Sequence record: NZ_CP110908.1
Origin: a plasmid
Reading direction: 5' to 3' (one strand)
Length of the DNA stretch: 64,000 bases
Shown here: positions 5,347 to 58,299 of the stretch, piece by piece
Numbering within the stretch: the first letter of the stretch is position 1
Layout of the letters: every line of letters starts with the position of its first letter
The notes under the pieces: generated by a model
The model's input: only the letters and a program-made list of their open reading frames with translations
The model's database searches: none
Told to the model about the DNA's origin: nothing
Program-made: the position numbers and the translations under genes

Positions 5347-7172
5347 GGCGTCGCATCCTTCATTTTTTCCGCGATGATGTCCTGCGCTTTTTTCAGTAGT
5401 GCCTGGTCTTCGGGGATGTCGCTGCCGGCACTGAGGTCATCATAAAAATCGCTGAAGTTCATCACGCCAAAATCGAGTCGCTGGAGTTCATCCACCGTGA
5501 TGCCCCGGCAGTCCGGTGATTTTCCCCCGCCGAACCCGACGCCCAGCTGGCCACGGCGGCCCTGCTCCTGGACGATACGCGCCAGTTTGGAGTCAAACAC
5601 GCAGTAACCGCGCTTCTTCTCCAGGCACACGCCCAGCACCTTTTTGCTGCAGTACTCCCCGACATACACTGTCAGCTTTTTGTCCTTCGCCTTCCCGAGC
5701 GCCTTTTCCTCGCTGCTGCAGCTCGACAGGCCCACATCCTGGCCCCAGCCGGAGTCCTTGCAGCAGTTATTGAAGCCCACCGCCATCTTCTTGCAGTGCT
5801 GCGCTTCTCCGGTAAAGGCGCGGACGTTTTCCCCGTTCAGCAGAGCCACATCTTCCCCGGCAGCGGCCACTGCCGCCAGCGCCGAGACCGCCTGACCAAA
5901 CATATTGCTGGTTCCCGTCTGCGCCTGGGCACAACTGCCGTCTTTACAGAAGAATTCCCCGCCGCAAATCTGGCCGTTACCCTCTTTTTTACGCTCACAG
6001 GAGTAGGTCACCTGCTGACTGACGCAGAAGCCGTCCACCGTGTCGGCACACTCGCTGCGGGTCACCGTACAGGTGGAGTCCCTCATGTATTCCCCGCAGG
6101 TTCCTTCCGTCTCTGTCTGGGTCAGGTACGTGTCCTGCCATTTCCAGCAGGCCTGATACGCACTCAGCGTCTGGCCACCGACCACAATCGTGCGGGTTTC
6201 ACCCGGTTCCACGCACTGTGAACCGGTCATGGCCCCCTCGGTCTTGCTGAACGGACAGTTTTCGGACCAGGTCACGACGGGTTTGTAACTGTCCCTTTTT
6301 ACCCGCAGCACGAAGCGCAGTTTAAACGGAACGTGTTTGCGGTGCGTCAGCGAGCCGGAGCCATCCCGGACTTTACGGGGATGACGGGAGGTGAACGACA
6401 CACCGGCAGTCAGGGAGGACGGAACAGGCTTAAAGCTCACGTTGTTGTACGACCCCTTCTGGTGCCACTGCACGTTATTACCGAGAAAGGAAATCGTCAT
6501 ATGGAAACGCGGTTTGTTACCGAGGGAGTTACTCCAGGAATACATGGCTTCCGTGATTTCCCCGCTGATTTGCGGCGTCACTGCCACCACGATGTTGCCG
6601 TTTTCCTCCCACGACGGCAGTTCACTCAGCTCATATTCCACCACTCTCACGTCATATTCCGTGCTGCCCTCATACCCCAGCGTGGCTGTGCGCGTACAGT
6701 ACTGCTCGATCTTCGTATCCCGCAGACACTGATGGGTGGTGATTTCGGTAAAGCTGGCAGGCTGGTCCACGCAGCCGGCAAACCCGCCGCCGGTAATGGT
6801 CTCCGCCTTGTCTTTCATGGCCAGCCCTTCAGAAATAAACGGCGCATCCAGCGACGGTTTATTATCCGGCGGCGTGTTCAGAATGGATTCGGTGATGGTT
6901 TTCCCGGCCTCCGAGGTATTCAGCGCCGACGACCCGGGTGAGGTCATGTCCACGCCGGAGGACGTCACGCCCCCGTAATAGCCGCTTTCCGGCGGTGAGT
7001 CGGTGTAGCCGGGGATTGCCTCTGCCGGGTTAAACCCCTGTATGGCACCGGCCCCCTGCCCTTTGCTGGCGTTACCCTGCTGCATGCCCTGGTTAAACTG
7101 GTCATTCGCGACAAGTGGCTGAACAAGGCAGAAGGATGCCATCGCCATCAGTAAAGGAAGATACCGCTTCAT
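5343..7172 (-). CDS. traN: TraN mating-pair stabilisation outer-membrane protein
   Basis: 609 aa, Cys-rich C-terminal half, signal peptide, position after trbC. F TraN-like. Confidence 0.85.
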   Translation of the reverse strand: MKRYLPLLMAMASFCLVQPLVANDQFNQGMQQGNASKGQGAGAIQGFNPAEAIPGYTDSPPESGYYGGVTSSGVDMTSPGSSALNTSEAGKTITESILNTPPDNKPSLDAPFISEGLAMKDKAETITGGGFAGCVDQPASFTEITTHQCLRDTKIEQYCTRTATLGYEGSTEYDVRVVEYELSELPSWEENGNIVVAVTPQISGEITEAMYSWSNSLGNKPRFHMTISFLGNNVQWHQKGSYNNVSFKPVPSSLTAGVSFTSRHPRKVRDGSGSLTHRKHVPFKLRFVLRVKRDSYKPVVTWSENCPFSKTEGAMTGSQCVEPGETRTIVVGGQTLSAYQACWKWQDTYLTQTETEGTCGEYMRDSTCTVTRSECADTVDGFCVSQQVTYSCERKKEGNGQICGGEFFCKDGSCAQAQTGTSNMFGQAVSALAAVAAAGEDVALLNGENVRAFTGEAQHCKKMAVGFNNCCKDSGWGQDVGLSSCSSEEKALGKAKDKKLTVYVGEYCSKKVLGVCLEKKRGYCVFDSKLARIVQEQGRRGQLGVGFGGGKSPDCRGITVDELQRLDFGVMNFSDFYDDLSAGSDIPEDQALLKKAQDIIAEKMKDATP

Positions 7173-19820: not shown

Positions 19821-19860
19821 GCAAGATTAAATCTTGCGACGGGTGTGGGACTTTGATGTT
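19821..19860 (+). other. oriT: oriT core: inverted repeat gcaagat-taa-atcttgc followed by the nick-like sequence GCGACGGGTGT/GGGACTTTG. Predicted nic is about 19846/19847 on the + strand.
   Basis: Same architecture as F oriT (GCAAAAACTTGTTTTTGCGTGGGGTGT^GGTGCTTTT). Strand polarity is consistent with leading-region genes being transcribed toward oriT. Confidence 0.55.
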
Positions 19861-45044: not shown

Positions 45045-45548
45045 TTACCTCCGCCAGAACGCCCACCATGCATGTTGTTTGCCCTGAAGTGCAGCTTTAT
45101 CCTGAAGTAATTCAGCACTAACTACCCCCTGAAGCATAGAAACGGAGTCTCTCGCGGCATTACGGTAGGAATCAATAAGATCACTGGGCTTTCTGAGCAA
45201 AATAAATTGCGATACTTTTGCCTGAGTATCAAACGCATAAACTCGTAATTCAGACGAAGAAGTGAGACTCACAATATTATGCAACCGCATATAATCGGTG
45301 TAGTCCTCGCCACCTGGATCACATGATTCATAAAGATATTTCTGCATTAGCAATTGCGATGAAGAAAGGAAATCTATATAGCGGTCAGTTTTTTTATCTA
45401 TATCACGCAGTCGCTGAGCTACTGCTTCTTTCCTAATTTCATGGAGGTGTGTTAATTTCAGTGTAATCCAGCCGCCAACAATGGTGATTAACGCGCCCAG
45501 ACCGATTTTAACGGCACTGTCAGCCACATCCACCCACTCAAGCGCCAT
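45045..45548 (-). CDS. Hypothetical protein (167 aa) with N-terminal TM segment
   Basis: ORF upstream of and co-oriented with 44516-44914. Confidence 0.4.
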   Translation of the reverse strand: MALEWVDVADSAVKIGLGALITIVGGWITLKLTHLHEIRKEAVAQRLRDIDKKTDRYIDFLSSSQLLMQKYLYESCDPGGEDYTDYMRLHNIVSLTSSSELRVYAFDTQAKVSQFILLRKPSDLIDSYRNAARDSVSMLQGVVSAELLQDKAALQGKQHAWWAFWRR

Positions 45549-45784
45549 CTGCTATCCCTTCTATTTCTGTGATGATCATGACTGTCAGTATAAATCCCCG
45601 GCGGATTGGACATACAGCGCTTTCTGTCCAGTTCAATCCATGCCTCGCTCTATCACCTTCAATCATGCACCAAGAATGTACAAAAAATGTTTTCTAACTT
45701 GGACATTTCGGCACTATCGGAAAAAGTGTCCAGAAAATATTTCTGGTGATCGTATTTAATTTTGTTGACCCGCTGCGCAAACCG

Positions 45785-45850
45785 TGAGTCTGTTCAGAAC
45801 TTGCTTCTGAACAGGGGAGGGGTTGGACAAGCCCGCCGGGCGCGTCAGCA
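45785..45850 (+). repeat. 65-bp element, copy 1: hairpin tgttcagaacttgcttctgaaca + GGGGTTGGACAAGCCCGCCGGGCGCGTCAG
   Basis: Directly repeated (~80% identical) at 55885-55943. Confidence 0.8.
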
Positions 45851-45970
45851 AGTCACATTGGGGTATGCTCTATATATACCATCCGAAAAAATACCGGCTA
45901 ATATTATTGTTACCACATAAGTGATACCATCATAAGCAAGACCACTTAAAAGTTACCAGAAGGACAAAAT

Positions 45971-46612
45971 ATGTTCGTTTTTGGTTACCTCCGGGCATCC
46001 ACTTCAGAGCAGGATGCCAGCCGGGCAAAAAATGCACTGAAGGCATTTGCAAACCAACATGGCCACCGTATTGCTGGCTGGTATATCGACAATGTCTCCG
46101 GTGCGACAATGAACCGTCCTGAACTGATCAGGCTTCTTGGTGATGCGGAACCTGGTGATGTGATTCTCATTGAACAGGTCGACAGGCTTACTCGACTGGA
46201 TGATGCAGGCTGGGAGACACTCAGAAAGCAAATCACCGACAAGCAGTTGGCCATCGTCAGTCTTGATTTACCAACCAGCCATCTGGCGCTATCCAGCACA
46301 GTAAGTGATGACTTCACCCGAAGCATGCTGAAGGCCGTAAATGGCATGATGCTGGATATGCTCGCCGCTATTGCCAGAAAAGACTACGAAGACCGTCGAC
46401 GTCGCCAGGCAGAGGGAATCTGTAAAGCGAAAACTGAAGGAAAATACCGGGGCAGGGTGGCCGATGCACAGAAACATGAACTGATACGTACTCTGCGCCT
46501 GGTCAACGGAAAATCGCTGCGAGAAACAGCCCGCCTGGCTGGCGTTTCCAAAATGACTGTCATCAGAGTCTGCAATGCTCAGAATGTAGAGCCAGAGACG
46601 GCTAATACCTAA
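45971..46612 (+). CDS. Serine recombinase (resolvase/invertase family)
   Basis: N-terminal FGYLRASTSEQD catalytic-Ser motif and C-terminal HTH. Confidence 0.8.
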   Translation: MFVFGYLRASTSEQDASRAKNALKAFANQHGHRIAGWYIDNVSGATMNRPELIRLLGDAEPGDVILIEQVDRLTRLDDAGWETLRKQITDKQLAIVSLDLPTSHLALSSTVSDDFTRSMLKAVNGMMLDMLAAIARKDYEDRRRRQAEGICKAKTEGKYRGRVADAQKHELIRTLRLVNGKSLRETARLAGVSKMTVIRVCNAQNVEPETANT

Positions 46613-46778
46613 GATGAATAACGTAACCCACACTCTGAAAGGACATAGCATGAATGATATACCATTTGTTACGTTCACCTCTGATCCTAGACTGGCCCCC
46701 TGAATCTCCAGACAACCAATATCACTTAAATAAGTGATAGTCTTAATACTAGTTTTTAGACTAGTCATTGGAGAGCAG

Positions 46779-47144
46779 ATGATTGATGTCTTAGGACCGG
46801 AGAAACGCAGACGGCGTACTACACAGGAAAAGATCGCTATTGTTCAGCAGAGTTTTGAACCGGGAATGACGGTCTCCCTTGTTGCCCGGCAACACGGTGT
46901 GGCAGCCAGCCAGTTATTTCTCTGGCGCAAGCAATACCAGGAGGGAAGTCTTACTGCTGTGGCCGCAGGAGAGCAGGTCGTTCCTGCCTCTGAACTTGCT
47001 GCTGCCATGAAGCAGATTAAAGAACTCCAGCGCCTGCTCGGCAAAAAAACGATGGAAAATGAACTCCTTAAAGAAGCCGTTGAATACGGGCGTGCAAAAA
47101 AGTGGATAGCGCACGCGCCCTTATTGCCCGGGGATGGGGAGTAA
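46779..47144 (+). CDS. insC: IS2 OrfA (InsC)
   Basis: [56 protein letters not shown]... matches InsC. Confidence 0.85.
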
Positions 47145-48007
47145 GCTTAGTCAGCCGTTGTCTCCGGGTGTCGCGTGCGCAGTTGCACGTAATTCTCAGA
47201 CGAACCGATGACTGGAAAGATGGTCGCCGCAGCCGTCACTCAGATGATACGGATGTGCTTCTCCGTATACACCATGTTATCGGAGAGCTGCCCACGTATG
47301 GTTATCGTCGGGTATGGGCGCTGCTTCGCAGACAGGCCGAACTTGATGGTATGCCTGCGATCAATGCCAAACGTGTTTACCGGATCATGCGCCAGAATGC
47401 GCTGTTGCTTGAGCGAAAAACCGCTGTACCGCCATCGAAACGGGCACATACTGGCAAAGTGGCCGTGAAAGAAAGCAATCAACGATGGTGCTCTGACGGG
47501 TTCGAGTTCCGCTGTGATAACGGAGAAAAACTGCGAGTCACGTTCGCGCTGGACTGCTGTGACCGTGAGGCACTGCACTGGGCAGTCACTACGGGCGGCT
47601 TCGACAGTGAAACAGTACAGGACGTAATGCTGGGAGCGGTGGAACGCCGCTTCGGCAACGAGCTTCCGGCGTCTCCAGTAGAGTGGCTGACGGATAATGG
47701 TTCATGCTACCGGGCTAATGAAACACGGCAGTTTGCCCGGATGTTGGGGCTTGAACCGAAGAACACGGCGGTGCGGAGTCCGGAGAGTAACGGCATAGCA
47801 GAGAGCTTCGTGAAAACGATAAAGCGTGACTACATCAGTATCATGCCTAAACCAGACGGGTTAACGGCAGCAAAGAACCTTGCAGAGGCGTTCGAGCATT
47901 ATAACGAATGGCATCCGCATAGTGCACTGGGTTATCGCTCGCCACGGGAATATCTGCGGCAGCGGGCCAGTAATGGGTTAAGTGATAACAGGTGTCTGGA
48001 ACTATAG
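47102..48007 (+). CDS. insD: IS2 OrfB (InsD, expressed as an OrfAB fusion by -1 frameshift)
   Basis: DDE transposase (...WCSDGFEF...[11 protein letters not shown]...). Matches InsD. Confidence 0.85.
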
Positions 48008-48322
48008 GGGCAAATCCAGATCCTATTGAAGGTGAAGTGAGTCAGGCTCTTTCTCTTTATAAAATTGCATTGATAAAAACCAATTACCGCAATTTTTGGC
48101 ATCGTCTGTTATGTAAATTAAGGGATAAAGAAGCACTTGAAAACGAATGTATTCTTGTCAAACAGGAAATACGATGTAGAGATGTCATCAATCAGTCCGA
48201 TGCACACAGAGAAATGCTAAAAATTCTTATAAGTCAACAACCCTCGGATATCCGTCAACGAGATCAGTTTAGCCGATTACTTGAACCTTCATCAACCAAT
48301 GCACTCTATAGAGAACATAGTG

Positions 48323-48676
48323 ATGACAAATAAATCAGGGGCCAACGGGCATTACGGCTATCTTTTTGAAGAGCCGGTAGATGAAATATCTGGTGATATC
48401 CTTATCGATTTAGAAAATCTACCGCCAGAGATGAAGCAGACTATTCTCTTGCTCGTGAAAAATGCAGCTGACCGTGATGCGGCGCAGAAAGCGCTGTCCG
48501 ACATAATGAAGCAAATTGAGTTTGATGTAACCGCTGCTGATTTGCAGCATATCTTTTTAAACCAGGTAACGCTTAAAGATCAGCATGGGAAAAAGGGGAC
48601 CGAACCACCCCGGAACGATCCCCTGAAGGAATGGCAATTCCGTTCACCGCCAATATTAGCTTTTTCCGGGCTGTGA
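48323..48676 (+). CDS. Hypothetical protein (117 aa), translationally coupled (ATGACAAATAA overlap) to the IS2-disrupted gene
   Basis: ORF in an AT-rich islet. No family recognised. Confidence 0.4.
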   Translation: MTNKSGANGHYGYLFEEPVDEISGDILIDLENLPPEMKQTILLLVKNAADRDAAQKALSDIMKQIEFDVTAADLQHIFLNQVTLKDQHGKKGTEPPRNDPLKEWQFRSPPILAFSGL

Positions 48677-48712
48677 TAACATATCCGGGTGATTTTTCAG
48701 AGCTCAGGACTG

Positions 48713-49651
48713 ATGAAGAAGAAATCCGGTACACCCACACCCCATGACGCGACATTTCGCCAGTTCCTGGCGAATCCCGATGTCGCCCGTGACTTCATGA
48801 TGTTACATCTCCCGGCTGAATTACGCGCGCTGTGCGATTTGACCACGCTGAAGCTGGAGTCCGGTACCTTCGTTGAGGACGACTTACGTCAGTACGCCAG
48901 CGACATTCTCTGGAGCATGAAAACCACCACCGGCGATGACGGGTACATCCATCTGCTTCTGGAACACCAGAGTTCGGCGGATAAAAATATGGCCTTTCGT
49001 CAGCTCAGATATGCTGTCGCCGCCATGCAACGTCATCTTGAAGCGGGTCATAAAAAACTGCCGCTGGTCATCCCGGTTCTGTTTTACCACGGCAGCCGGA
49101 GTCCGTACCCGTTCTCCACGAACTGGCTGGATTGTTTCAGTAACCCGGAACAGGCCGGAAAAGTATACACGACAGGATTCCCGCTGGTTGATGTCACCGT
49201 CATCGATGATGATGAGATAATGAACCACAGACGGATGGCCGCACTGACCCTGCTGATGAAACATATCCGCCAGCGGGACATGATGGAACTGCTGGACAGG
49301 CTACCCCGGGTGATGGTGGAATGGATTTCCCCCGAACAGGTCCGCGTTCTGATAAACTACATGTTAAATGCAGGCGAAGCGCCTGCACCGGAATTTATGC
49401 GGGCGCTGGCAGAGCGTCTGCCGCAACACGAGGATGAACTGATGACCATCGCACAACAGCTTGAACAGATTGGCATCGAGAAGGGCCTGCAGCAGGGCCT
49501 GCAGTTAGGTGAGCAACGCGGTATTGAAAAAGGCCGCAATGAAGGCAAACTCGAAGTTGCCCGCACCATGCTCCAGAACGGTATCGACCGCAGTACCGTC
49601 ATGAAAATGACCGGTCTGACTGAAGACGATCTGGCGCAGATCCGCCACTAA
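48713..49651 (+). CDS. rpn: Rpn-family recombination-promoting nuclease (YhgA-like, PD-(D/E)xK)
   Basis: ...PHDATFRQFLANPDVARDF...LLEHQSSADKNMAFRQLRYAVAAM... and C-terminal EKGxxxG repeats, as in E. coli RpnA. Confidence 0.75.
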   Translation: MKKKSGTPTPHDATFRQFLANPDVARDFMMLHLPAELRALCDLTTLKLESGTFVEDDLRQYASDILWSMKTTTGDDGYIHLLLEHQSSADKNMAFRQLRYAVAAMQRHLEAGHKKLPLVIPVLFYHGSRSPYPFSTNWLDCFSNPEQAGKVYTTGFPLVDVTVIDDDEIMNHRRMAALTLLMKHIRQRDMMELLDRLPRVMVEWISPEQVRVLINYMLNAGEAPAPEFMRALAERLPQHEDELMTIAQQLEQIGIEKGLQQGLQLGEQRGIEKGRNEGKLEVARTMLQNGIDRSTVMKMTGLTEDDLAQIRH

Positions 49652-49737
49652 TCCCCCTTTCCCGGCACTCCCTGTCCGGCCATCAGCGAATACTGGTGGG
49701 GCAGGGAGGCACCAGACTCAGGCTCTGCCTGCCAGCC

Positions 49738-50532
49738 TCACGCTGTCCGCAGTGATGTCGGGGGATAATGTGTGCTTACCATCAGAAGCGAAGCCTCCTG
49801 CTTTTCAAGTTCGGCTCTGGCGTTTTCCGACAAACCATCATCTGTAATTATTGTATCAAAGGCGTCCAGCGACAATGCCAGCCAGGTCGCCACCTGGCCA
49901 TATTTTGTGGCGTCACAGACCAGTATCCGTTGCCTGCTGGCGTCGGCTATCGCCCGTTTTACCGTCACCTTATCTTCTGCCGGGGTGGAAATGCCCCGGA
50001 CACTCCACGACGAGGCAGAGATAAATGCCTGATCAATCATCAGCCCACGCAACATGGTTGCCGTGGCTTCCCCCACACATGAACGGTTTTCCCGGCAAAC
50101 AGCCCCCCCGGTGTGAATAATTGTGCAACTGCTGTTATCAAGCAGAAAATCTGCGATGACAAAATCATTGGTGACCACGGTAAGAGGTTCTGTTTTAACC
50201 AGATGCTGAGCGATGGCAAGAGTGGTCGTTCCTGCATCCAGATAGATGCAACTGCCGGGCTGAATGAGACTGGCTGCAAGCTTTCCGATCGCTGTTTTTT
50301 GCTTCATTGCCAGTGCTGTTTTCATCTGATGGGAAGGCTCATGCGCCACTCTCCCGGATAACTGAACACCACCAGACACCAGCGTCACGGCCCCCTGCTG
50401 CTCCAGTTTTTGCAAATCCCGGCGAATGGTCATATGCGACACATTTAACCTGTCTATCAGCTCAGCAATACTGACAACGCTTTTTTCAGCAATCATCCCC
50501 AGGATAATTTGTCGACGTTCTGCGGGTATCAA
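49738..50532 (-). CDS. ygbI: DeoR-family transcriptional regulator
   Basis: N-terminal HTH (SIAELIDRLNVSHMTIRRDL) plus DeoR C-terminal sugar-binding domain. Divergent from ygbJ, as in E. coli K-12. Confidence 0.8.
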   Translation of the reverse strand: MIPAERRQIILGMIAEKSVVSIAELIDRLNVSHMTIRRDLQKLEQQGAVTLVSGGVQLSGRVAHEPSHQMKTALAMKQKTAIGKLAASLIQPGSCIYLDAGTTTLAIAQHLVKTEPLTVVTNDFVIADFLLDNSSCTIIHTGGAVCRENRSCVGEATATMLRGLMIDQAFISASSWSVRGISTPAEDKVTVKRAIADASRQRILVCDATKYGQVATWLALSLDAFDTIITDDGLSENARAELEKQEASLLMVSTHYPPTSLRTA

Positions 50533-50725
50533 CTTCAGCTCCTTCCTTTTGACCTGCGGTCATTCTACGTTATTTGTTCGTTATACGTGTATGACCCGTA
50601 TTCTGGATTCACATAAATTAACAGCATATGTTAATTTATGTGACGCGATTCACTAACCAGCTTTCGTTAACTGTATATATTAACAATATAGAACAAAATA
50701 ACACTTAAATTAACAAGGAAAGAAG

Positions 50726-51634
50726 ATGAAAACGGGCTCAGAGTATCATGTCGGTGTTGTTGGTTTAGGTTCAATGGGGATGGGAGCGGCACTGTCATGC
50801 GTGCGCGCCGGTCTGTCCACCTGGGGGGCTGATCTGAACGTCAGAGCATGCGAAACCCTCAAAAAATCAGGGGCATGCGGCGTTTCTGATAACGCAGCAG
50901 TGTTTGCAGAAAAACTGGATGCGCTGCTGTTACTGGTGGTCAACGCGGCTCAGGTGAAGCAGATACTGTTTGGCGATAACGGTGTTGCCCGGCATCTGAA
51001 ACCCGGAACCGTTGTGATGGTTTCCTCCACAATTGCCAGTGCTGATGCACAGGAAATTGCTACAGCCCTGGCGGCATTCGATCTGGATATGCTGGATGCA
51101 CCTGTTTCCGGTGGCGCGATCAAAGCGGCTGACGGGGAAATGACCGTCATGGCTTCCGGCAGTGATAACGCTTTCGCCCGTCTCGAACCAGTCCTGGATG
51201 CTATTGCAGGCAAAGTTTACCGCATTGGTAAAGAACCGGGCCTGGGTGCCACGGTGAAAATAATTCACCAGCTTTTAGCGGGTGTACATATTGCCGCAGG
51301 GGCAGAAGCAATGGCACTGGCCGCACGCGCGGGCATTCCACTGGATGTGATGTATGACGTGGTCACCCACGCTGCCGGCAACTCCTGGATGTTCGAAAAC
51401 CGGATGCGCCACGTTGTTGATGGTGATTACACAGCTAAATCTGCCGTTGATATATTCGTAAAAGATTTAGGGTTAGTGGCCGATACCGCTAAATCACTCC
51501 ACTTCCCGCTGCCCCTGGCATCAACCGCATTCAATATGTTCACTGCAGCCAGTAACGCCGGTTACGGCAAAGAAGATGACAGTGCGGTCATCAAAATTTT
51601 CTCCGGTATCACTCTTCCTGGGAGAAAATCATGA
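50726..51634 (+). CDS. ygbJ: L-threonate dehydrogenase (HIBADH/6PGDH family)
   Basis: GVVGLGSMG Rossmann motif. Operon context (ltnD). Confidence 0.85.
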   Translation: MKTGSEYHVGVVGLGSMGMGAALSCVRAGLSTWGADLNVRACETLKKSGACGVSDNAAVFAEKLDALLLLVVNAAQVKQILFGDNGVARHLKPGTVVMVSSTIASADAQEIATALAAFDLDMLDAPVSGGAIKAADGEMTVMASGSDNAFARLEPVLDAIAGKVYRIGKEPGLGATVKIIHQLLAGVHIAAGAEAMALAARAGIPLDVMYDVVTHAAGNSWMFENRMRHVVDGDYTAKSAVDIFVKDLGLVADTAKSLHFPLPLASTAFNMFTAASNAGYGKEDDSAVIKIFSGITLPGRKS

Positions 51635-52893
51635 TCAAGATTGGTGTTATCGCCGATGACTTTACCGGCGCGACAGACATCGCCAGTTTTCTGGTGGAAA
51701 ACGGGTTATCTGCCGTGCAAATGAACGGGGTGCCAACGGGTGAACTGCCGGAAGACACCGACACGGTGGTTATCAGCCTGAAAACACGTTCCTGTCCAGT
51801 AACCGAAGCCATACAGCAATCGCTTAAGGCTCTTGAGTGGTTACAGCGGCATGGCTGTCGCCAGATCTACTTTAAATACTGCTCCACCTTTGACAGCACA
51901 GCACAGGGTAATATCGGACCGGTTACCGATGCCCTGATGGACGCACTCGAAACACCGTTTACCGTCTTCTCTCCCTCGCTGCCTGTGAATGGTCGCACAG
52001 TGTATCAGGGCTACCTGTTTGTAATGAGTCAGCTGCTGGCTGAATCCGGAATGCGCCACCACCCGGTAAATCCCATGACCGACAGCTATCTTCCCCGGCT
52101 GGCCGAAGCACAGTCAAAAGGGCGCTGTGGCGTGGTTCCGGTCAGCATTCTTGAACAGGGTGCTGACGCCATTCGTCAGGAACTGGCTCGCTTACAGCAG
52201 GCAGGCTGTCGCTATGCCGTTCTTGATGCCCTGACAGAACACCATCTGGAGATCCAGGGCGAAGCCCTGCGTGACGCCCCGCTGGTGACCGGCGGTTCCG
52301 GTCTGGCGATTGGCCTGGCACGACAATGGGCCATACCTGGTCATTCCTCTGTACACGAAACGGTCCGGCCATTCACCGGGCGCGGTGTTGTGCTCTCCGG
52401 CTCCTGCTCGCAGATGACGAACCTGCAGGTGGCTCATTATTGCCGGATAGCCCCATCCCGTGAAGTGGATATTTCCCGTTGTCTCTCCGCAGAAACACTG
52501 GCGCCATACGTTTGTGAACTGGCTGCATGGGTATTACATCAGGAAAGCGATCTTGCCCCACTGGTGTTTGCCACCGCCAGTACCACCGCTCTGGCTGCCA
52601 TCCAACAACAATATGGAGCCCGGAAAGCCAGCCAGGCGGTGGAAGCCCTGTTTTCTCAGCTGGCTGCCCAACTGGCTGCAGACGGTGTCACACGTTTTAT
52701 TGTCGCCGGTGGGGAAACCTCGGGCGTGGTCACGCAGAGCCTCTCAGTCACAGGTTTTCACATCGGCCCGACAATTTCCGCCGGTGTGCCCTGGGTCAAT
52801 GCCCTTGATAAACCGGTTTCACTCGCCCTTAAATCCGGGAATTTCGGGGATGAAGCCTTTTTTTCGCGTGCCCAGAGAGAGTTTCAGCCATGA
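51631..52893 (+). CDS. ygbK: Four-carbon acid sugar kinase (DUF1537; 3-oxo-tetronate kinase)
   Basis: MIKIGVIADDFTGATD N-terminus typical of OtnK/DUF1537. Confidence 0.85.
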   Translation: MIKIGVIADDFTGATDIASFLVENGLSAVQMNGVPTGELPEDTDTVVISLKTRSCPVTEAIQQSLKALEWLQRHGCRQIYFKYCSTFDSTAQGNIGPVTDALMDALETPFTVFSPSLPVNGRTVYQGYLFVMSQLLAESGMRHHPVNPMTDSYLPRLAEAQSKGRCGVVPVSILEQGADAIRQELARLQQAGCRYAVLDALTEHHLEIQGEALRDAPLVTGGSGLAIGLARQWAIPGHSSVHETVRPFTGRGVVLSGSCSQMTNLQVAHYCRIAPSREVDISRCLSAETLAPYVCELAAWVLHQESDLAPLVFATASTTALAAIQQQYGARKASQAVEALFSQLAAQLAADGVTRFIVAGGETSGVVTQSLSVTGFHIGPTISAGVPWVNALDKPVSLALKSGNFGDEAFFSRAQREFQP

Positions 52894-53528
52894 ATGATGC
52901 CGCAAAAAAAGAACAATTCCTGCGGGAGGAAATGATTCGGATCGCCGGCTCTTTCTTTCAGCGCGGCTATGCCACAGGTTCGGCCGGCAATCTGTCCCTG
53001 CTTTTACCCGACGGCAACTTACTGGCAACGCCAACAGGGTCGAGTCTGGGTAATCTTGACCCACAACGGCTTTCCAAAGTGACGCCCGGGGGGGAATGGC
53101 TGAGTGGTGACAAACCGTCCAAAGAGGTGCGCTTCCATCTGGCGCTGTATCAAAACAATCCGGGTTGCAAAGCGGTGGTGCATTTGCACAGCACCTGGTC
53201 AACGGCACTTTCCTGCCTACAGGGGCTGAACAGCAGCAATGTCATCCGCCCTTTTACGCCTTATGTCGTCATGCGGATGGGAAATATCCCACTGATACCC
53301 TATTACCGTCCCGGAGATAAACGCATCGCTCAGGATCTGGCTAAACTGGCCGCCGATCATCAGGCTTTTTTACTGGCAAATCATGGACCGGTTGTCTGTG
53401 GGGAAAGTCTGCAGGAGGCCGCTAACAATATGGAAGAACTGGAGGAAACGGCAAAGTTGATCTTCATCCTCAATGACCGTCCGATCCGGTATCTGACCAC
53501 CGATGAAATTGCTGAGTTAAGGAGCTGA
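52890..53528 (+). CDS. ygbL: Class II aldolase/adducin family (3-oxo-tetronate 4-phosphate decarboxylase)
   Basis: 212 aa. ...HLHSTW... metal-binding His motif. Confidence 0.85.
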
Positions 53529-53532
53529 TACC

Positions 53533-54309
53533 ATGCCACGTTTTGCCGCTAATTTGTCCATGATGTTCACTGAGATCCCCTTTATTGAACGTTTTGCTGC
53601 CGCGCGAAATGCAGGATTTAATGCTGTGGAGTTTCTGTTTCCTTATGATCACTCCCCGCATGAAATCCGGCAGCAACTGACACAAAACAATCTGACGCTT
53701 GTCCTGTTTAATACTGCAGCAGGAAATATCCATGCAGGAGAATGGGGATTATCCGCCCTGCCAGGGCGGGAGAAGGAGGCCCGTACGGATATCGATCGGG
53801 CACTGGAATATGCGCTGGCTCTCAATTGCGAGCAGGTCCACGTCATGGCAGGGGTCGTCCCCACCGGTGAAGATGCAGGCCTGTGTCGTGAGGTCTTTAT
53901 CGACAACCTTCGCTATGCTGCCGAACGCTTTGCACCACACGGTAAACGCGTCCTGATCGAAGCGCTCAGCCCTGGTGTGAAACCTGACTATCTTTTCTCC
54001 AGCCAGTATCAGGCACTGGCGATTGTTAAAGAGGTCTCGCGTCCGAACGTCTTTATCCAGCTGGATACTTTCCATGCTCAAAAAGTGGATGGCAATCTGA
54101 CCCGGTTAATCCGCGATTACGCCGGAAAATATGCCCACGTTCAAATTGCCGGACTTCCTGACCGGCATGAACCGGACGACGGAGAAATTAACTATTCATG
54201 GCTTTTCCGCCTGTTCGATGAGGTGGAATACCCGGGCTGGATTGGGTGTGAGTACACCCCCCGAACCCATACCGAAGCTGGGCTTGGCTGGTTTAACGCC
54301 TGGCGATAA
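53533..54309 (+). CDS. ygbM: Hydroxypyruvate-isomerase-like TIM-barrel (2-oxo-tetronate isomerase)
   Basis: [14 protein letters not shown]... Hyi-family N-terminus. Confidence 0.85.
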
Positions 54310-54394
54310 CGCTTAATTCATTATCACAACGACTCTACATTCCCCCCATCTCCGGATGGGGCAGGTTAACTATAACTTTCAGACAGGGTTTCTC

Positions 54395-55762
54395 ATGTCC
54401 ACTATCACATTGTTATGCATTGCGTTAGCCGGCGTAATCATGCTGTTACTGCTGGTCATTAAGGCAAAAGTTCAGCCTTTCATTGCACTGTTGCTCGTCA
54501 GTCTGGTCGTTGCACTAGCCGCGGGGATCCCGGCGGGTGACGTCAGCAAAGTCATGATCGCCGGAATGGGAGGTGTTCTCGGCTCCGTCACGATTATTAT
54601 CGGCCTTGGCGCAATGTTAGGGCGGATGATAGAGCATTCTGGCGGTGCTGAATCTCTGGCCAACTATTTCAGCCAAAAACTGGGAAGTAAACGCACCATT
54701 GCTGCACTCACCCTGGCCGCATTTTTCCTGGGTATTCCCGTGTTCTTTGATGTCGGGTTTATTATTCTGGCACCGATTATTTACGGTTTTGCCAAAGTAG
54801 CCAGGCTGTCCCCACTTAAATTTGGTTTGCCGGTCGCCGGGATTATGCTGACCGTTCACGTGGCGGTACCTCCTCATCCAGGCCCGGTAGCCGCCGCAGG
54901 GTTACTCCATGCAGATATTGGCTGGCTGACCATTCTCGGTATCGCCATTTCCATTCCGGTCGGTATTGTCGGCTACATTGCAGCCAGAATGATCAATAAA
55001 CGTCAGTACGCGCTGTCCGTTGACGTGCTGGAACAGATGCAACTGACTCCCGCGGCCAGTTCCGGGGAAACCACGAAAATCAGTGACAAAATGAGCCCCC
55101 CAGGTGTGGCGCTGGTTACCGCTCTGATTGTCATTCCAATTGCCATTATTATGGCCGGAACCGTGTCTGCCACGTTAATGCCGGCATCGCATCCGCTGTT
55201 AGGCACGCTACAACTGCTTGGCTCCCCGATGGTGGCGCTGATGATTGCGCTGATACTGGCATTCTGGTTGCTGGCTTTACGTCGGGGCTGGGGTTTACAA
55301 CATACCAGCGACATTATGGGGTCGGCGCTACCCACTGCAGCAGTTGTCATCCTGGTGACGGGGGCGGGGGGCGTATTTGGTAAGGTTCTGGTGGAGTCCG
55401 GCGTGGGTAAGGCCCTTGCCAGTATGCTCCATATGATGGACCTGCCTCTGTTGCCTGCCGCCTTTATCATTTCACTGGCTCTCAGGGCATCACAGGGCTC
55501 AGCGACAGTGGCTATTCTTACTACCGGTGGGCTACTTTCTGAAGCTGTTGTGGGGCTAAATCCGATCCAGTGCGTGCTGGTTACACTGGCTGCCTGCTTT
55601 GGCGGACTTGGGGCATCACATATCAACGACTCTGGTTTCTGGATCGTGACCCGATACCTGGGATTAAGTGTGGCAGATGGACTGAAAACCTGGACCGTAT
55701 TAACCACGATCCTCGGCTTCACAGGCTTCCTGATTACCTGGGGCATATGGGCAGTGGTTTAG
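54395..55762 (+). CDS. ygbN: GntP-family permease
   Basis: MSTITLLCIALAGVIMLLLLVIKAKVQPF... GntP N-terminus. Polytopic membrane protein. Confidence 0.85.
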   Translation: MSTITLLCIALAGVIMLLLLVIKAKVQPFIALLLVSLVVALAAGIPAGDVSKVMIAGMGGVLGSVTIIIGLGAMLGRMIEHSGGAESLANYFSQKLGSKRTIAALTLAAFFLGIPVFFDVGFIILAPIIYGFAKVARLSPLKFGLPVAGIMLTVHVAVPPHPGPVAAAGLLHADIGWLTILGIAISIPVGIVGYIAARMINKRQYALSVDVLEQMQLTPAASSGETTKISDKMSPPGVALVTALIVIPIAIIMAGTVSATLMPASHPLLGTLQLLGSPMVALMIALILAFWLLALRRGWGLQHTSDIMGSALPTAAVVILVTGAGGVFGKVLVESGVGKALASMLHMMDLPLLPAAFIISLALRASQGSATVAILTTGGLLSEAVVGLNPIQCVLVTLAACFGGLGASHINDSGFWIVTRYLGLSVADGLKTWTVLTTILGFTGFLITWGIWAVV

Positions 55763-55884
55763 CGTCAGTAAAAATCAGACACCAGTCAGAATTTTCACGC
55801 CCTGACCAGGAATGGTGAGGGGATGGGCATTCCGGTCACAGTCACCGCTGGTGAGCCACATCGCTTTACCTTTGCAACCTGATG

Positions 55885-55943
55885 TCTGCTCAAAACTTGT
55901 TTTTGAGCAGACGACGGGTTGGGCAAGCCCGCCGGGCGCGTCA
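55885..55943 (+). repeat. 65-bp element, copy 2: hairpin ctgctcaaaacttgtttttgagcag + CGACGGGTTGGGCAAGCCCGCCGGGCGCGTCAG
   Basis: Direct repeat of 45785-45850. Abuts the stop of the resD-like gene. Confidence 0.8.
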
Positions 55944-55960
55944 GGCCGTTATCAAAGGAC

Positions 55961-56752
55961 TCACACTGACCCTTTCAGCATGGCCACCGCATCCGTCTCC
56001 GGCATCTGAAACTGCACCCGGTGCCGCGCCGCCACGTCCAGTGCAAACACCTTCGTGTACACCTCTGTCGAACTGACTGACTTGTGGCCCATCAGGCTCT
56101 GCAGCACCTTCAGCGGGATACCGGCGTACAGCATATGCATGGCGTAGCTGTGACGGAACGTATGCGGTGTCACCGGCACGGAGAACATCACGCCGTCGAC
56201 CGCAGCGATTTCAACCGCTTCATTCAGCCAGGTCCGGACCGTCCGGTCGGTGATCTCCCAGATGCGGGCCTTCTCCGTTCTGCCGGTGCGTTTATTCTTC
56301 CGCTCAAGCGGGATCTTCAGCGTGGCAACCATCATCTCCAGCTGGCTGACATACTGCTGATCAGAAAGCGGTACCAGGCGATGCGCCTGACTGCCTGCAG
56401 GGGCACGGCCTGCCGTTCTGGCTGCTTTCTCCGTGCGCTGTTTCAGGGTGGCCAGTTGCACAAACGGATAAGGCGGCGCGAGCGAAAAATCCCCCCTTGT
56501 CAGGGCCAGGGCTTCGTTGATGCGTGCCCCGGTGTTCCACAACGTCGCCAGCAGCATTTTACGGTGCAGGTCCGGCACATAGTGGAGCAGGGCACTCACT
56601 TCCGGGGCCAGCAGGTATTTCGGCAGTTCATCCTGCACCAGCGCCATCTGACGCAGGACCAGCGCGGCCGGATAATCAATGGCCACCGGCAGATGAACGG
56701 GCTGAACCGGCGAATGCAATGCCGGTCGCTGTACCGGCAGGTTACTGTTCAT
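55961..56752 (-). CDS. resD: Tyrosine site-specific recombinase (F ResD-like multimer-resolution protein)
   Basis: C-terminal ...HTFRHSYAMHML...LMGHKSVSSTEVYTKV... (R-H-R-Y family). Immediately downstream of ccdB, as in F. ATG at 56752. Confidence 0.6.
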   Translation of the reverse strand: MNSNLPVQRPALHSPVQPVHLPVAIDYPAALVLRQMALVQDELPKYLLAPEVSALLHYVPDLHRKMLLATLWNTGARINEALALTRGDFSLAPPYPFVQLATLKQRTEKAARTAGRAPAGSQAHRLVPLSDQQYVSQLEMMVATLKIPLERKNKRTGRTEKARIWEITDRTVRTWLNEAVEIAAVDGVMFSVPVTPHTFRHSYAMHMLYAGIPLKVLQSLMGHKSVSSTEVYTKVFALDVAARHRVQFQMPETDAVAMLKGSV

Positions 56753-57057
56753 CCCGTTCTCCGTTGCCCTGCACCGGGCCATCAGTATCCGGAGCCATCC
56801 GCCAGACGGCCCCGCCGAACTCGGTTCCCCCGACCACCTGCGACCATTCGTCACTGCAGGCCAGGCTTTTCGCCACCACCGCAAAATCCACATGGCTGAG
56901 CGGGGTGTCGCCACGCTCGCCAGGCGTTTCCAGGACCAGACCATCCGGTACCACCGGGCCGGGCGTGCCGGCCAGTCTGGCAGAGCGGCGCCAGAAACTG
57001 CGGATACAGCCCCCCTGTCTCAGGACACTGAGCAGCACCTGTTCGCTGATCCGCATG

Positions 57058-57363
57058 TCAGATCCCCCGGAACATCAGGTTGATGGCGTTCTGGATGTCA
57101 TTCTCCAGGTGGCTGAGATCGGCCACTTCTTCCCCGATGACAGTGGCCGGCACACTGGCCATATCCGTGGTCATCAGACGATAAGGGTCACCTCCGACTG
57201 ACACCACCGGATAAAGCTCACGCGAGACTTTGTCGGACAGCAGGCGGGCGCTGACCAGCGGGATCACCATCCGGCGTCCCGGGGTGTCAATAATGTCACT
57301 CTGCACGTCGACGAACAGACGGTAGCGGCTTTCTCTTTTATAGGCGTAAACCTTAAACTGCAT
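57058..57363 (-). CDS. ccdB: CcdB gyrase poison
   Basis: [54 protein letters not shown]... is near-identical to F CcdB. Confidence 0.9.
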
Positions 57364-57364
57364 A

Positions 57365-57583
57365 TCACCAGTCCCTGTTTTCGTCAGCAAACGATCCGTT
57401 AGCCTCGATAAAGCTGGCCACCTCAGCCATACCTTCCCGGTTTTCTTCCTGCCAGCGTTCGGCGCGCAGACGGCGGGCTTCGTTCTGCATGGTCGTACTG
57501 ACCAGACCGGAGATATTTACGTCGTATGCCTTGAGCAACTGATAGCTGTCGCTGTCCACTGTCACTGTAATACGCTGCTTCAC
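57365..57583 (-). CDS. ccdA: CcdA antitoxin (GTG start)
   Basis: [44 protein letters not shown]... AGAGG RBS. Confidence 0.85.
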
Positions 57584-58299
57584 AATGCACCTCTTTTTTA
57601 CATACTTCAGGTATGCCATAAAGTATACATTCTGCTGAAGCAAAAATCTGCTCCGCTCTGTGAATACTGTAAACCGGCTTACAGTGACTGAGTTAACTGT
57701 ACACTGCTGTTATAGACATACCTCGCATATGCATTTTGATGCGCATCTTATTGATGCCGGATTTCGCCTCTTAAAACGCATACTGTTAGCCAGCCACTAG
57801 TAACCTAATCATATTTTACACATAGCAACTTTCACCAGATGCAATTACAACTCAACTTATAAAAACACCCCTGAATTACCGGATGGCAGTTTTCTGGTGA
57901 TCCGATTTCTGGAGTATTTAAGACTTTCCGGAAGTGTACCACGGGCAGGGAATAAGCAAAGCGGTCTTTTCCGGCCCTGTGCGACAGGTCAGGAAAAGAG
58001 AGAGTAACACAACATATAGTAGATAATCCGTCTTACGGAGTAGTGCATTTTGTGTTTCCGGGCCGAAGATCGCCGGAGTGGTACAGGAAGATCCGGGACT
58101 GCCTTTTTTCGGATCTGAGCGGGAAAAGTGAGAAACCAACATAGGTGTAACATATCCATATGCCGGGCATCTGCATAGGCAAAGCATACGCATATACCTA
58201 CCATCTGCATATGTAACACCTATACAAGCCGGGCTTGCAGGCATATACTTCACCTATGCGGGAATACTCCCTGGCACACTCAGCATATGAGGAAAAACC

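Follow-up and report, generated by a model that had tools for sequence, protein, structure and literature searches.

Two direct repeats bound a 10-kb segment of plasmid NZ_CP110908.1 that includes six ygb genes, and the question raised by this locus is what the repeats are and whether they account for the presence of the ygb genes. The initial annotation had described them as 65-bp repeats resembling the nick region of oriT and had proposed that they might serve as rfsF-like sites for the tyrosine recombinase ResD, as secondary oriT sites or as HUH-type ends that captured chromosomal DNA. Analysis of the window, i.e. the whole stretch of 64,000 nucleotides studied, and of related replicons indicated that each repeat is a copy of a structured DNA element, not described before and confined to plasmids, which adjoins recombinase genes in more than 1000 enterobacterial plasmids.

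Repeat pair and gene content

A repeat search of the window identified one direct repeat pair, 45788-45848 and 55884-55944, of 61 nt and 85% identity, and conserved edges extend each copy to about 85 nt (Table 1). The pair and its orientation are therefore as first described, while the length of the conserved unit is not. Degenerate patterns for each repeat half matched just these two places in 64 kb and none of 100 shuffles gave a match; a covariance model of the element, trained on 26 family members, matched only the two copies.

The gene content reported previously (serine recombinase, IS2, a split small-gene module, rpn, the ygb cluster, ResD and ccdAB) was borne out by annotation. The serine recombinase is similar over its full length to the Sin, Tn3 and gamma-delta resolvases. 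A 115-aa ORF starting at 46651 is split by IS2, and relatives without IS2 exist (locus L044 and others). The Rpn gene is followed by a conserved tail of about 86 nt (49652-49737), and the adjacent block consists of ygbI (49738-50532, minus strand) and ygbJKLMN (50726-55762). The ResD ORF is listed as 327 aa; homology to F ResD begins at M65, indicating a product of about 263 aa, and annotation calls it at 263 aa. No HUH gene was found in or near the repeat-bounded module by annotation and profile search.

Table 1. Coordinates of the features in and around the repeat-bounded segment
Feature	Position	Strand	Evidence
Element copy 1	45770..45854	+	Repeat search, fold, covariance model (91 bits)
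Putative res site of the serine resolvase	45849..45970	+	Inferred; conservation in every resolvase context
Small serine recombinase, resolvase type, C-terminal HTH	45971..46612	+	PF00239, 4.6e-24
IS2 insertion, 1331 bp	46688..48018	+	Target duplication GATCC at 46683-46687 / 48019-48023
Rpn (YhgA-like PD-(D/E)XK nuclease) gene	48689..49651	+	Annotation, profile match
Inserted block, ygbI(-) and ygbJKLMN	49738..55845	.	Junction comparison with relatives
Element copy 2	55866..55950	+	Repeat search, fold, covariance model (88 bits)
ResD tyrosine recombinase	55961..56944	-	86% identity to F ResD
ccdB and ccdA, head of ccd-resD operon	57058..57643	-	Profile match
rfsF-type 28-bp site AGATCCGGGACTGCCTTTTTTCGGATCT, expected ResD target	58089..58116	+	Pattern match; PMC8299605

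Structure of the element

The element comprises a hairpin of about 20 bp with covarying arms and the loop CTNGY, the invariant tail GTTGGRCAAG, a small GC hairpin and GCGCGTCAG. The hairpin of copy 1 (45780-45824) has arms of 20 nt, the loop CTTGC and, in this lineage, a 6x6 internal loop, and is followed by the invariant GTTGGACAAG, a short GC hairpin (45826-45846) and GCGCGTCAG. The hairpin of copy 2 (55876-55920) is a nearly uninterrupted 21-bp stem in which two pairs are T.G and one position is an A.A mismatch, followed by GTTGGGCAAG, the GC hairpin and GCGCGTCAG. A hairpin had thus been recognized correctly; the G-rich box that was set apart from it is part of the stem.

Alignment of the 26 family members revealed that 89.7% of the stem cells are paired, versus 30-48% with slid partners. 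Double-change pairs numbered 7 compared with 3.0 +/- 1.0 in shuffles, and the covariation score was 0.186 compared with 0.122 (0/500 shuffles in both cases). The same two helices were recovered by RNAalifold, and A.A and T.T stem mismatches were present in three related lineages (L009, L011 and L017). Stem cells held 44 G.T versus 3 A.C; since pairing was kept via G.T but not via A.C intermediates, it is the + strand that folds. The left flank of the element is unrelated between plasmids and therefore the element needs no outside promoter. From these features we infer that it most likely acts as DNA, while the + strand is single-stranded.

Mutation bias or template-switch correction of quasi-palindromes, and not selection, could be partly reflected in the G.T excess.

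Distribution and genetic contexts

The element matched 1027 plasmid records, and its carriers include pSLT and the Klebsiella virulence plasmids; it is present at one to three copies per plasmid, with a single copy in most. Its occurrence spans Hafnia, Erwinia, Pantoea, Kluyvera, Citrobacter, Salmonella and Klebsiella. Among E. coli complete genomes, 147 of 5426 carried it (median one per genome) and 165 of the 166 occurrences were on plasmids. These figures do not agree with a ubiquitous REP/BIME family, which the initial annotation had named as evidence against its proposal; a chromosomal repeat of this type was rejected, as many dispersed chromosomal copies were not seen and a single place of 166 was off-plasmid. 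Like REP, BIME and ERIC sequences the element is a short imperfect intergenic palindrome, sometimes located between convergent genes, but it differs from them in being plasmid-only, in its low copy number and in its fixed contexts beside recombinase genes.

The element is found in either or both of two places: immediately outside the putative res site I of a Sin/Tn3-like serine resolvase, and shortly beyond the resD 3' end. A conserved ACATTNGGGTAT...ACC site and a resolvase gene follow immediately to its right in about 18 lineages, and in about 13 it is beside the resD 3' end; that the repeats are related, direct and tied to recombinase genes was confirmed. Weak extra copies are present on either side of a toxin-antitoxin pair in L013 and of two small ORFs in L007, and L008 retains just the part from GTTGG onward. 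The covariance model found no copy in the F plasmid, despite its ResD and rfsF.

In the window, a putative site I, ACATTGGGGTAT-N9-ATACC, directly abuts copy 1, and (A/T)TACC motifs recur from there to the ATG. These inverted half-sites directly right of copy 1 and upstream of the resolvase gene constitute a putative res; the element is outside it, and no site I is present 3' of copy 2. The arrangement resembles that of Tn3/Sin res in that the element abuts a conserved inverted GGTAT-N9-(T/A)(C/T)ACC and further repeats upstream of a Sin/Tn3-like resolvase gene, and, as in site I of the Tn3 family, homology between lineages breaks at the centre of the putative site I (e.g. L015 vs L041). The element itself, however, is a covarying hairpin and not a set of protein-binding repeats, and it persists without resolvase or site I, as in copy 2 and the Klebsiella virulence plasmids.

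Presence and absence of the segment and of the ygb genes

A search for the empty site, as initially suggested, revealed eight Citrobacter plasmids (H121-H128) that carry the same outer flanks and a single copy of the element; the synthetic junction was covered 100% in one piece at 85% identity. The segment between the repeats behaves as a presence/absence unit, and thus the repeat-bounded module is an old insertion/deletion unit. As the empty-site plasmids are just 85% identical, they are not recent excision products. Most simply, the module would be the relic of a resolvase-mediated fusion.

The gene order without ygb was element, Rpn, element, ResD in L021 and parBA(-), element, Rpn, element, ResD in L034, while the Klebsiella virulence plasmids showed Rpn, element, ResD. 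Since many plasmids carry this arrangement without ygb, some of them with both copies, the six ygb genes (approximately 49738-55845) arrived later, by insertion between the Rpn tail and copy 2. On the left, the junction coincides with the ygbI stop codon (49738); on the right, it falls in the interval from the ygbN stop (55762) to about 55845, some 40 nt left of copy 2. Neither IS nor repeats were found at the ygb junctions. The E. coli chromosome matched the window with 79% identity only over 49877-55755. The proposal that the repeats explain the capture of the ygb genes is not upheld by these comparisons; on sequence grounds the repeats appear to predate the ygb genes and probably did not capture them. 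The initial annotation had regarded ygb genes in a repeat-free context elsewhere as contrary evidence, and the location of the ygb junctions inside the repeat-bounded segment is equivalent to it in spirit. Copy 2 of the window and of L021 share 95% identity, versus 83% for the adjoining stretch of copy 2 plus resD, which suggests that copy 2 may be under selection.

rfsF and oriT sequences

The rfsF site of F has the pattern AGATCCGNAAN8TTNCGGATCT (PMC8299605) and is a known hotspot of mosaic exchange in F, IncI1 and IncR plasmids (PMC8299605, PMC8004404, PMC9412624). In the window this pattern, with arms AGATCCGNAA and TTNCGGATCT around an 8-bp spacer, matched a single place with 1 mismatch (Table 1), about 445 bp upstream of ccdA; the distance is about 390 bp in F (locus L005, rfsF at 1923-1950 and ccdA at 2341). 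An rfsF-type site is also found at the operon head in 11 other ResD loci. The window resembles the F rfsF/ResD system in its recombinase and in its operon with ccdAB.

Copy 2 has the 10-mer CTTGTTTTTG in common with the F nic-proximal sequence, 5'-CTTGTTTTTGCGTGGGGTGT|GGT (PMC2504302), and the 7 nt after its hairpin (GACGGGT) are those following the plasmid's own oriT hairpin (GCAAGATtaaATCTTGC-GACGGGTGTGGGAC, 19822-19852). The MOBF nic regions read GCAAAAACTTGTTTTTGC-GTGGGGTGT|GG in F and GCAAGATTAAATCTTGC-GACGGGTGT|GGGAC in this plasmid, and the element resembles them in having a hairpin and then a G-rich stretch on the transferred strand. The statement that copy 2 carries the F oriT core holds as a literal match but not as mimicry of oriT, and the G-rich box is not nic-like, being the 3' arm of the hairpin. 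Its variants across the 26 members (CAAGGGGTT, CGAGGGGTT and CCTGGCGTT) are each matched by a change in the opposite arm, so that copy 2 resembles oriT only superficially. The majority of the members have TTCAGAACTTGCTTCTGAA in place of the F-like A/T run, the family consensus is without the F-like stem, and the invariant GTTGGRCAAG...GCGCGTCAG has no counterpart in oriT. The MOBF nic motif (G)GTGT|GG, single-stranded 3' of an inverted repeat, was rejected for the element, where these bases are paired and covary and where GTGTGG is not in the family consensus. The covariance model of the element gave no match at the plasmid's own oriT.

Alternative explanations

An rfsF-like resolution site for ResD was suggested by the ResD stop codon, 17 nt from the end of copy 2, and by an inner hairpin resembling inverted arms around a short spacer. 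However, the bona fide 28-bp site is present at the same relative position as in F, the 11 further ResD loci show the same arrangement, and the element, whose loop is 5 nt long and whose arms are unrelated, shows no sequence resemblance to this 10-8-10 site, is located past the resD 3' end instead of upstream of ccdA, is absent from F and has freely covarying arms, unlike those bound by proteins; this role is hardly credible. A secondary oriT or HUH end, where a relaxase would nick the strand 3' to the hairpin and starting and stopping at the two copies would mobilise or capture the DNA between them, is very improbable. The shared motifs of copy 2, the layout on one strand of a hairpin and a conserved single-stranded 3' tail, and the coincidence of the folding strand with the transferred strand in the window and pSLT are consistent with it, but the last rests on shared synteny, the G-box is base-paired, the F-like stem is peculiar to one sub-lineage and the model does not recognize a real oriT. 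Furthermore, 240 of the 1027 carriers are typed as non-mobilizable and some carry MOBH relaxases, the HUH gene is lacking from the module and its surroundings, and two direct copies have been stably kept while the sequences diverged by about 15-20%.

A folded single-strand recombination site like attC or the CTX-phage attP(+), at which ResD or host XerCD would insert and excise modules as cassettes between direct copies, is likewise doubtful. As in those sites, structure is conserved more than stem sequence and folding is strand-specific. The 3' foot carries the invariant GTTGGAC/GTTGGGC, in agreement with the attC R' consensus GTTRRRY. Direct copies bracket Rpn, the toxin-antitoxin pair and the resolvase-Rpn module beside a tyrosine recombinase gene (at one end in the approximately 13 lineages), the bracketed segment is present or absent among plasmids, and the remnant in L008 begins at GTTGG. 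Against this, a complementary R'' box is missing: a comparison with R''(RYYYAAC)/R' boxes found just AAC conserved on the 5' side, and the four outer bases are unpaired except in L028. Conservation runs about 30 nt past GTT in all contexts, unlike cassette boundaries, no extrahelical-base pattern was recognized in the element, and most plasmids have one copy, usually one or two. Integron-integrase matches were all below the curated threshold (62 vs 265 bits for the neighbour, which is the F ResD orthologue with its own rfsF, F being without the element), and both arms of each copy match each other, giving no sign of crossover within the hairpin. A + strand RNA structure, i.e. a barrier, processing site or stabiliser that would keep read-through transcription out of the res/resolvase locus (at copy 1) and off the antisense side of resD (at copy 2), or a UTR element of the Rpn operon, is unlikely but deserves some weight. 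At two stem positions a G.U-type pair is the most common state, and such pairs are frequent at others, as in RNA families; the two copies are co-oriented with the resolvase, Rpn and ygb genes, copy 2 is in the 3' region after Rpn or ygbN, and its fold is stable (z = -3.65). On the other hand, neither copy has a U-tract after the hairpin, no promoter-like site was found upstream of copy 1, and a + strand transcript at copy 1 is not assured, since the genes to its left (parA, M14-like) are on the other strand and the left flank varies; no Rfam 15 match was obtained over 45500-56200 on both strands at E <= 1.

Proposed history of the segment

The explanation that we favour, and to which we would give an even chance, is that the element is a self-contained structured cis element of about 85 nt, that it forms part of the maintenance backbone in enterobacterial plasmids of the F-like and related groups, and that it has a history of fusion. 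It would mark the outer edge of a res locus with the order element, site I, further subsites, resolvase gene, two small ORFs and Rpn. We infer that a plasmid (flank-element-site I-resD(-)) could have recombined at site I with DNA carrying element-res-resolvase-Rpn, which would leave the resolvase-Rpn module bracketed by two direct copies, and that site I may then have been lost from the copy beside resD. In one lineage the six ygb genes would have replaced the short spacer between the Rpn tail and copy 2, in relatives a DUF2913 gene, without involvement of the repeats, and IS2 would have inserted after ygb.

This history is one of several that fit, and deletion by homologous recombination between the copies would give the same single-copy plasmids. 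The left homology break at the hairpin foot is not accounted for by a resolvase crossover at site I and counts against the fusion. Because site I is missing at copy 2 and the target of ResD is rfsF, at another place, neither recombinase would be expected to act on the pair, and the 10-kb segment should be stable. The weak extra copies in L013 and L007 hint at a more general role of the element at module boundaries than that of a single fusion relic.

Repeat pair and gene content of the segment

Searches for long direct repeats in the region revealed exactly one pair, 61 nt in length and 85% identical, each repeat lying within a structured element of about 85 nt. Degenerate patterns built on the hairpin half and on the 3' half each matched only these two places in the 64 kb, while shuffles gave no match. 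The window is 100% identical to the Citrobacter freundii plasmid NZ_CP110892.1, and gene and profile annotation bore out the gene list that the initial annotation had given around and between the repeats. IS2 interrupts a 115-aa ORF downstream of the resolvase gene, 12 codons from the start of this ORF; the same ORF is intact in relatives, those free of IS2 carrying intact 115-aa and 117-aa ORFs between resolvase and Rpn. PADLOC returned no defence-system match for the two small ORFs, the resolvase or a 167-aa ORF annotated as peptidase M14 on the left of copy 1, and one weak match for the C-terminus of Rpn. The conserved tail that follows Rpn is common to the pSLT, Klebsiella, E. albertii and Erwinia loci, and a convergent DUF2913 gene runs with its 3' end into this tail in some plasmids.

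Features of plasmid NZ_CP110908.1 considered in the analysis
Feature	Position	Strand	Remarks
oriT nic region	19822-19852	+	GCAAGATtaaATCTTGC-GACGGGTGT/GGGAC, also written GCAAGATtaaATCTTGC-GACGGGTGTGGGAC
Terminator-like site, left of copy 1	45746-45730	-	hairpin with T-run
Element, copy 1	45770-45854	+	61-nt repeat at 45788-45848
Putative res site	45849-45970		probable; element just outside site I
Serine recombinase (resolvase)	45971-46612		PF00239
IS2	46688-48018		1331 bp; 5-bp GATCC target duplication; whole span with duplications 46683-48023
Two small ORFs	between resolvase and Rpn
Rpn	48689-49651
Conserved Rpn tail	49652-49737		about 86 nt, directly after Rpn stop; strong hairpin CTCCCTGTCC...GGGGCAGGGAG
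ygbI	between Rpn and copy 2	-
ygbJKLMN	between ygbI and copy 2
Terminator-like site, left of copy 2	55809-55782	-	hairpin with T-run
Element, copy 2	55866-55950	+	61-nt repeat at 55884-55944
Tyrosine recombinase, ccdB, ccdA	after copy 2	-
rfsF-type site	58089-58116		AGATCCGGGACTGCCTTTTTTCGGATCT; 28 bp, 1 mismatch; likely ResD target

Empty sites and origin of the ygb insertion

With a synthetic junction as query, in which the Rpn tail is fused to the copy 2/ResD side, many plasmids were found in which Rpn and ResD converge over about 145 nt containing the element, without the ygb genes. Both copies are present without ygb in two of the comparison loci fetched from other records (L-numbers), namely L021 (element, Rpn interrupted by IS110, element, ResD; copies 2.8 kb apart) and L034 (parBA on the minus strand, element, Rpn, element, ResD; copies 1.37 kb apart). 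In the window the end of the conserved Rpn tail is the start of the ygbI stop codon at 49738, the similarity of the ygb genes to the E. coli chromosome (79%) ends at the ygbN stop, and about 40 nt on the left of copy 2 are common to the window and L021. These junctions, together with the ygb-free plasmids, indicate that the ygb block (about 49738-55845) lies inside an older structure and that the repeats predate it; the proposal that oriT-like repeats had captured a chromosomal operon is thus not sustained. The position of the ygb block is occupied in relatives by a DUF2913 gene or its remnants. Inspection of the block junctions revealed no IS and no repeat, and insertion at a short CTGGTG repeat was rejected since this motif belongs to the conserved Rpn tail of all lineages.

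An exact-protein look-up for a chromosomal ygb donor found none at identity; identical ygb proteins occurred in the same plasmid context only, the matches including two plasmid segments within chromosome-sized records. The resolvase-Rpn-ygb(-ResD-ccd) segment is found in CP056181.1 (L045, 4.99 Mb) and in CP136727.1 (L047/L054, 4.93 Mb), in the latter alongside the plasmid genes ParB, RES and umuDC, and this arrangement suggests a plasmid integrated into the chromosome. A diverged version (79-85%) of the ygb arrangement, without copy 2, is carried by a Salmonella plasmid.

The empty site carrying a single copy was also found: a second synthetic junction, consisting of the copy 1 left flank, one element and ResD, matched eight Citrobacter plasmids over 100% of its length, in a single piece and with 85% identity. 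Plasmid pBM527-1 carries the peptidase M14 gene, a single copy-1-type element with ACATTGGGGTATAC and the ResD stop about 25 nt further. The resolvase-Rpn module is therefore present in some plasmids and missing from others between the same flanks. A degenerate second copy after Rpn was sought in the single-copy plasmids (pSLT, Klebsiella KPC, E. albertii) and none was found.

ResD and its rfsF site

The tyrosine recombinase of the window shows 86% identity to F ResD. The replicon-fusion/resolution site rfsF of F is 28 bp long, AGATCCGNAA-N8-TTNCGGATCT (PMC8299605). One site of this type was identified in the window, about 445 bp upstream of ccdA, as compared with about 390 bp in F, and an rfsF-type site at the operon head was also present in eleven other ResD-bearing loci fetched. 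Scanning F with a covariance model of the repeat element revealed no copy. Since F, the window and the eleven other loci all have rfsF at the operon head, and F is without the element, the ResD/rfsF system is complete without the repeats. The window site is likely the true target of this ResD orthologue, and the suggestion that the repeats themselves were rfsF-like ResD sites is not supported. Sites of the rfsF type are a known hotspot for replicon fusion.

Genomic contexts of the element and the putative res site

The contexts were classified in about 40 loci, a sample reached via similarity searches seeded on the window. Most loci (class A) carry the element, ACATTNGGGTAT-N9-(T/A)(C/T)ACC, more (A/T)TACC repeats, a resolvase of about 210 aa with similarity to the Sin, Tn3 and gamma-delta resolvases over its full length, two small ORFs and Rpn. 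Class B1 (L039, L040 and L041, with L018 similar) is without a resolvase gene; the element and the first inverted site are followed after 30-100 nt by the 3' end of resD on the opposite strand. In class B2 (window copy 2, L021 and L028-L036, among them the Klebsiella virulence plasmid pSGH10, L029) the inverted site is missing and resD lies within 10-35 nt of the element.

On the right of the element, homology between lineages is lost halfway through the inverted site; loci L015 and L041, for instance, are identical through GGGTATACCCGT and diverge after it. Such breaks are expected from crossover at site I of a resolvase, so the stretch between the copy 1 repeat and the resolvase gene is read as a probable res site, with the element just outside site I. 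On the left, homology between plasmids ends at the foot of the hairpin, and in Dryocola (L008) only the part from GTTGG onward is kept. Weaker extra copies (31-40 bits with the covariance model) were detected about 1.1 kb upstream of the main copy in L013 and L007, where extra and main copies bracket a Phd/RelE-type toxin-antitoxin pair (L013, 2369-3525) and two small ORFs (L007, 3219-4400), both pieces lying right after a divergent parA-like gene. In the Erwinia tracheiphila locus L009 a second diverged pair, resolvase-like (27% identity) and Rpn-like (57%), is located at 5144-6812, 2 kb downstream of the first module.

Structure and covariation of the element

Alignment of 26 distinct copies revealed a main hairpin with arms of about 20 nt and a 5-nt loop C-T-N-G-Y, followed by an invariant GTTGGRCAAG, a short GC hairpin closed by GAC/GTC and an invariant GCGCGTCAG; RNAalifold recovered the same helices. 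Paired cells amounted to 89.7%, as against 30-48% with slid partners, a control that corrects for kinship among the copies. In shuffles, which ignore kinship, neither the seven pairs changed on both sides (3.0 +/- 1.0 expected; 0/500) nor the covariation score of 0.186 (against 0.122; 0/500) was reached. The non-Watson-Crick cells comprised 44 G.T versus 3 A.C, and helix 2 varied via G.U only, from which it follows that pairing is kept on the + strand only; mutation processes in quasi-palindromes could account for part of the G.T excess. A.A and T.T mismatches are present in three related copies. The element is a strongly conserved, covarying, strand-specific hairpin.

The copy 1 sub-lineage has a conserved 6x6 internal loop and the copy 2 sub-lineage a nearly continuous stem. 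Copy 2 of the window and that of L021 are 95% identical, while the adjacent stretch of element and resD is 83% identical, and the copy 2 stem shows lineage-specific compensatory changes; both observations indicate that copy 2 itself is under selection.

Distribution of the element family

The 61-nt core matched 1027 plasmid records, every time as a discrete unit, Salmonella virulence and Klebsiella plasmids among them. A pattern anchored in the 3' part detected the element, in one-genome-per-species data, in Hafnia, Izhakiella, Erwinia, Pantoea, Citrobacter, Rosenbergiella, Kluyvera, Atlantibacter and Dryocola. Among complete E. coli genomes it was present in 147 of 5426 (median one per genome) and 165 of the 166 places were on plasmids; the repeat is not of the REP/BIME type. 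Its place is always the edge of recombinase loci, and it sometimes brackets small maintenance or defence modules. An Rfam scan of the region gave no match, and no description of the element was found in the searchable literature; rlgA of pSLT sits at a different locus. The six matches of a metagenome pattern scan were all unrelated or chance-like GC-rich sequences, none beside a resolvase. Locus L019 (NZ_JABBXF010000124.1, labelled Streptomyces morookaense) matches the Klebsiella plasmid L003 without a difference over the element and the flanks shown, 60 nt on the left and 30 nt on the right; the resolvase of L019, which is truncated, resembles that of the window about as much as the Klebsiella resolvase does, and the locus is probably a contamination of the Streptomyces assembly.

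Possible function and resemblance to oriT

The initial annotation had compared the repeats with the oriT nick region. Copy 2 does have CTTGTTTTTG in common with F oriT (...CTTGTTTTTGC-GTGGGGTGT/GG; PMC2504302) and GACGGGT with the oriT of its own plasmid, to the left of which the minus strand carries tra genes, one of them a probable traM. These matches sit at varying, covarying positions of the family, most members having TTCAGAACTTGCTTCTGAA, and the supposed nic-like G-box corresponds to the stem's 3' arm, which changes from CAAGGGGTT to CGAGGGGTT to CCTGGCGTT while the 5' arm changes to match. Nothing in oriT corresponds to the invariant part of the element, and the covariance model did not match the real oriT of the plasmid. 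The folding strand is the transferred strand in the window and in pSLT, an agreement that is not independent evidence because the order of oriT, leading region, umuDC, parAB and element is common to both. A relaxase target is a poorly supported reading, as is an rfsF-like site.

No sigma-70-like promoter was found near either copy and no T-run after either element hairpin. The terminator-like sites are on the minus strand only, 35-60 nt to the left of each copy, and minus-strand transcripts, for example of the ccd-resD operon, would run through the element as its reverse complement before coming to an end. The element could alternatively be a + strand RNA barrier or UTR element; the variable left flank stands against a + strand RNA dependent on an upstream promoter. 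Pairing on one strand argues for an element that would act while the + strand is in single-stranded form, be it in conjugative entry, in replication or when the opposite strand is transcribed. In our estimate the element is unlikely to be a folded single-strand site of a new kind, similar to attC or CTX attP(+), for recombination or for marking module boundaries on enterobacterial plasmids; in this reading a tyrosine recombinase (ResD or XerCD) or another structure-specific enzyme, for instance the neighbouring Rpn nuclease, would act on the single-stranded + (transferred) strand and so swap maintenance and defence modules (Rpn, toxin-antitoxin pairs, resolvase) between plasmids. These statements on function derive throughout from comparison of sequences.

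As the reading with most support we propose that the element may be a structured cis site, self-contained, bordering a resolvase res locus on its outer side, and that the pair in the window would be what remains of an old fusion or insertion, at res site I beside resD; site I would have been lost from copy 2 afterwards, and the ygb genes and IS2 would have come later by unrelated events. Because neither recombinase has its own sites flanking the segment as a pair, the island should be stable, which fits its persistence over 15-20% divergence.

For the plasmid itself, the annotation gains the real rfsF location, a probable res site and precise boundaries for the inserted ygb block. More than 1000 plasmids of clinical importance carry the element, among them pSLT, the virulence plasmid of Salmonella, as well as hypervirulence plasmids of Klebsiella and KPC plasmids. 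Should the element serve as a recombination or priming signal, it would matter for the mosaicism of F-like backbones and for the origin of hybrid virulence/resistance plasmids.
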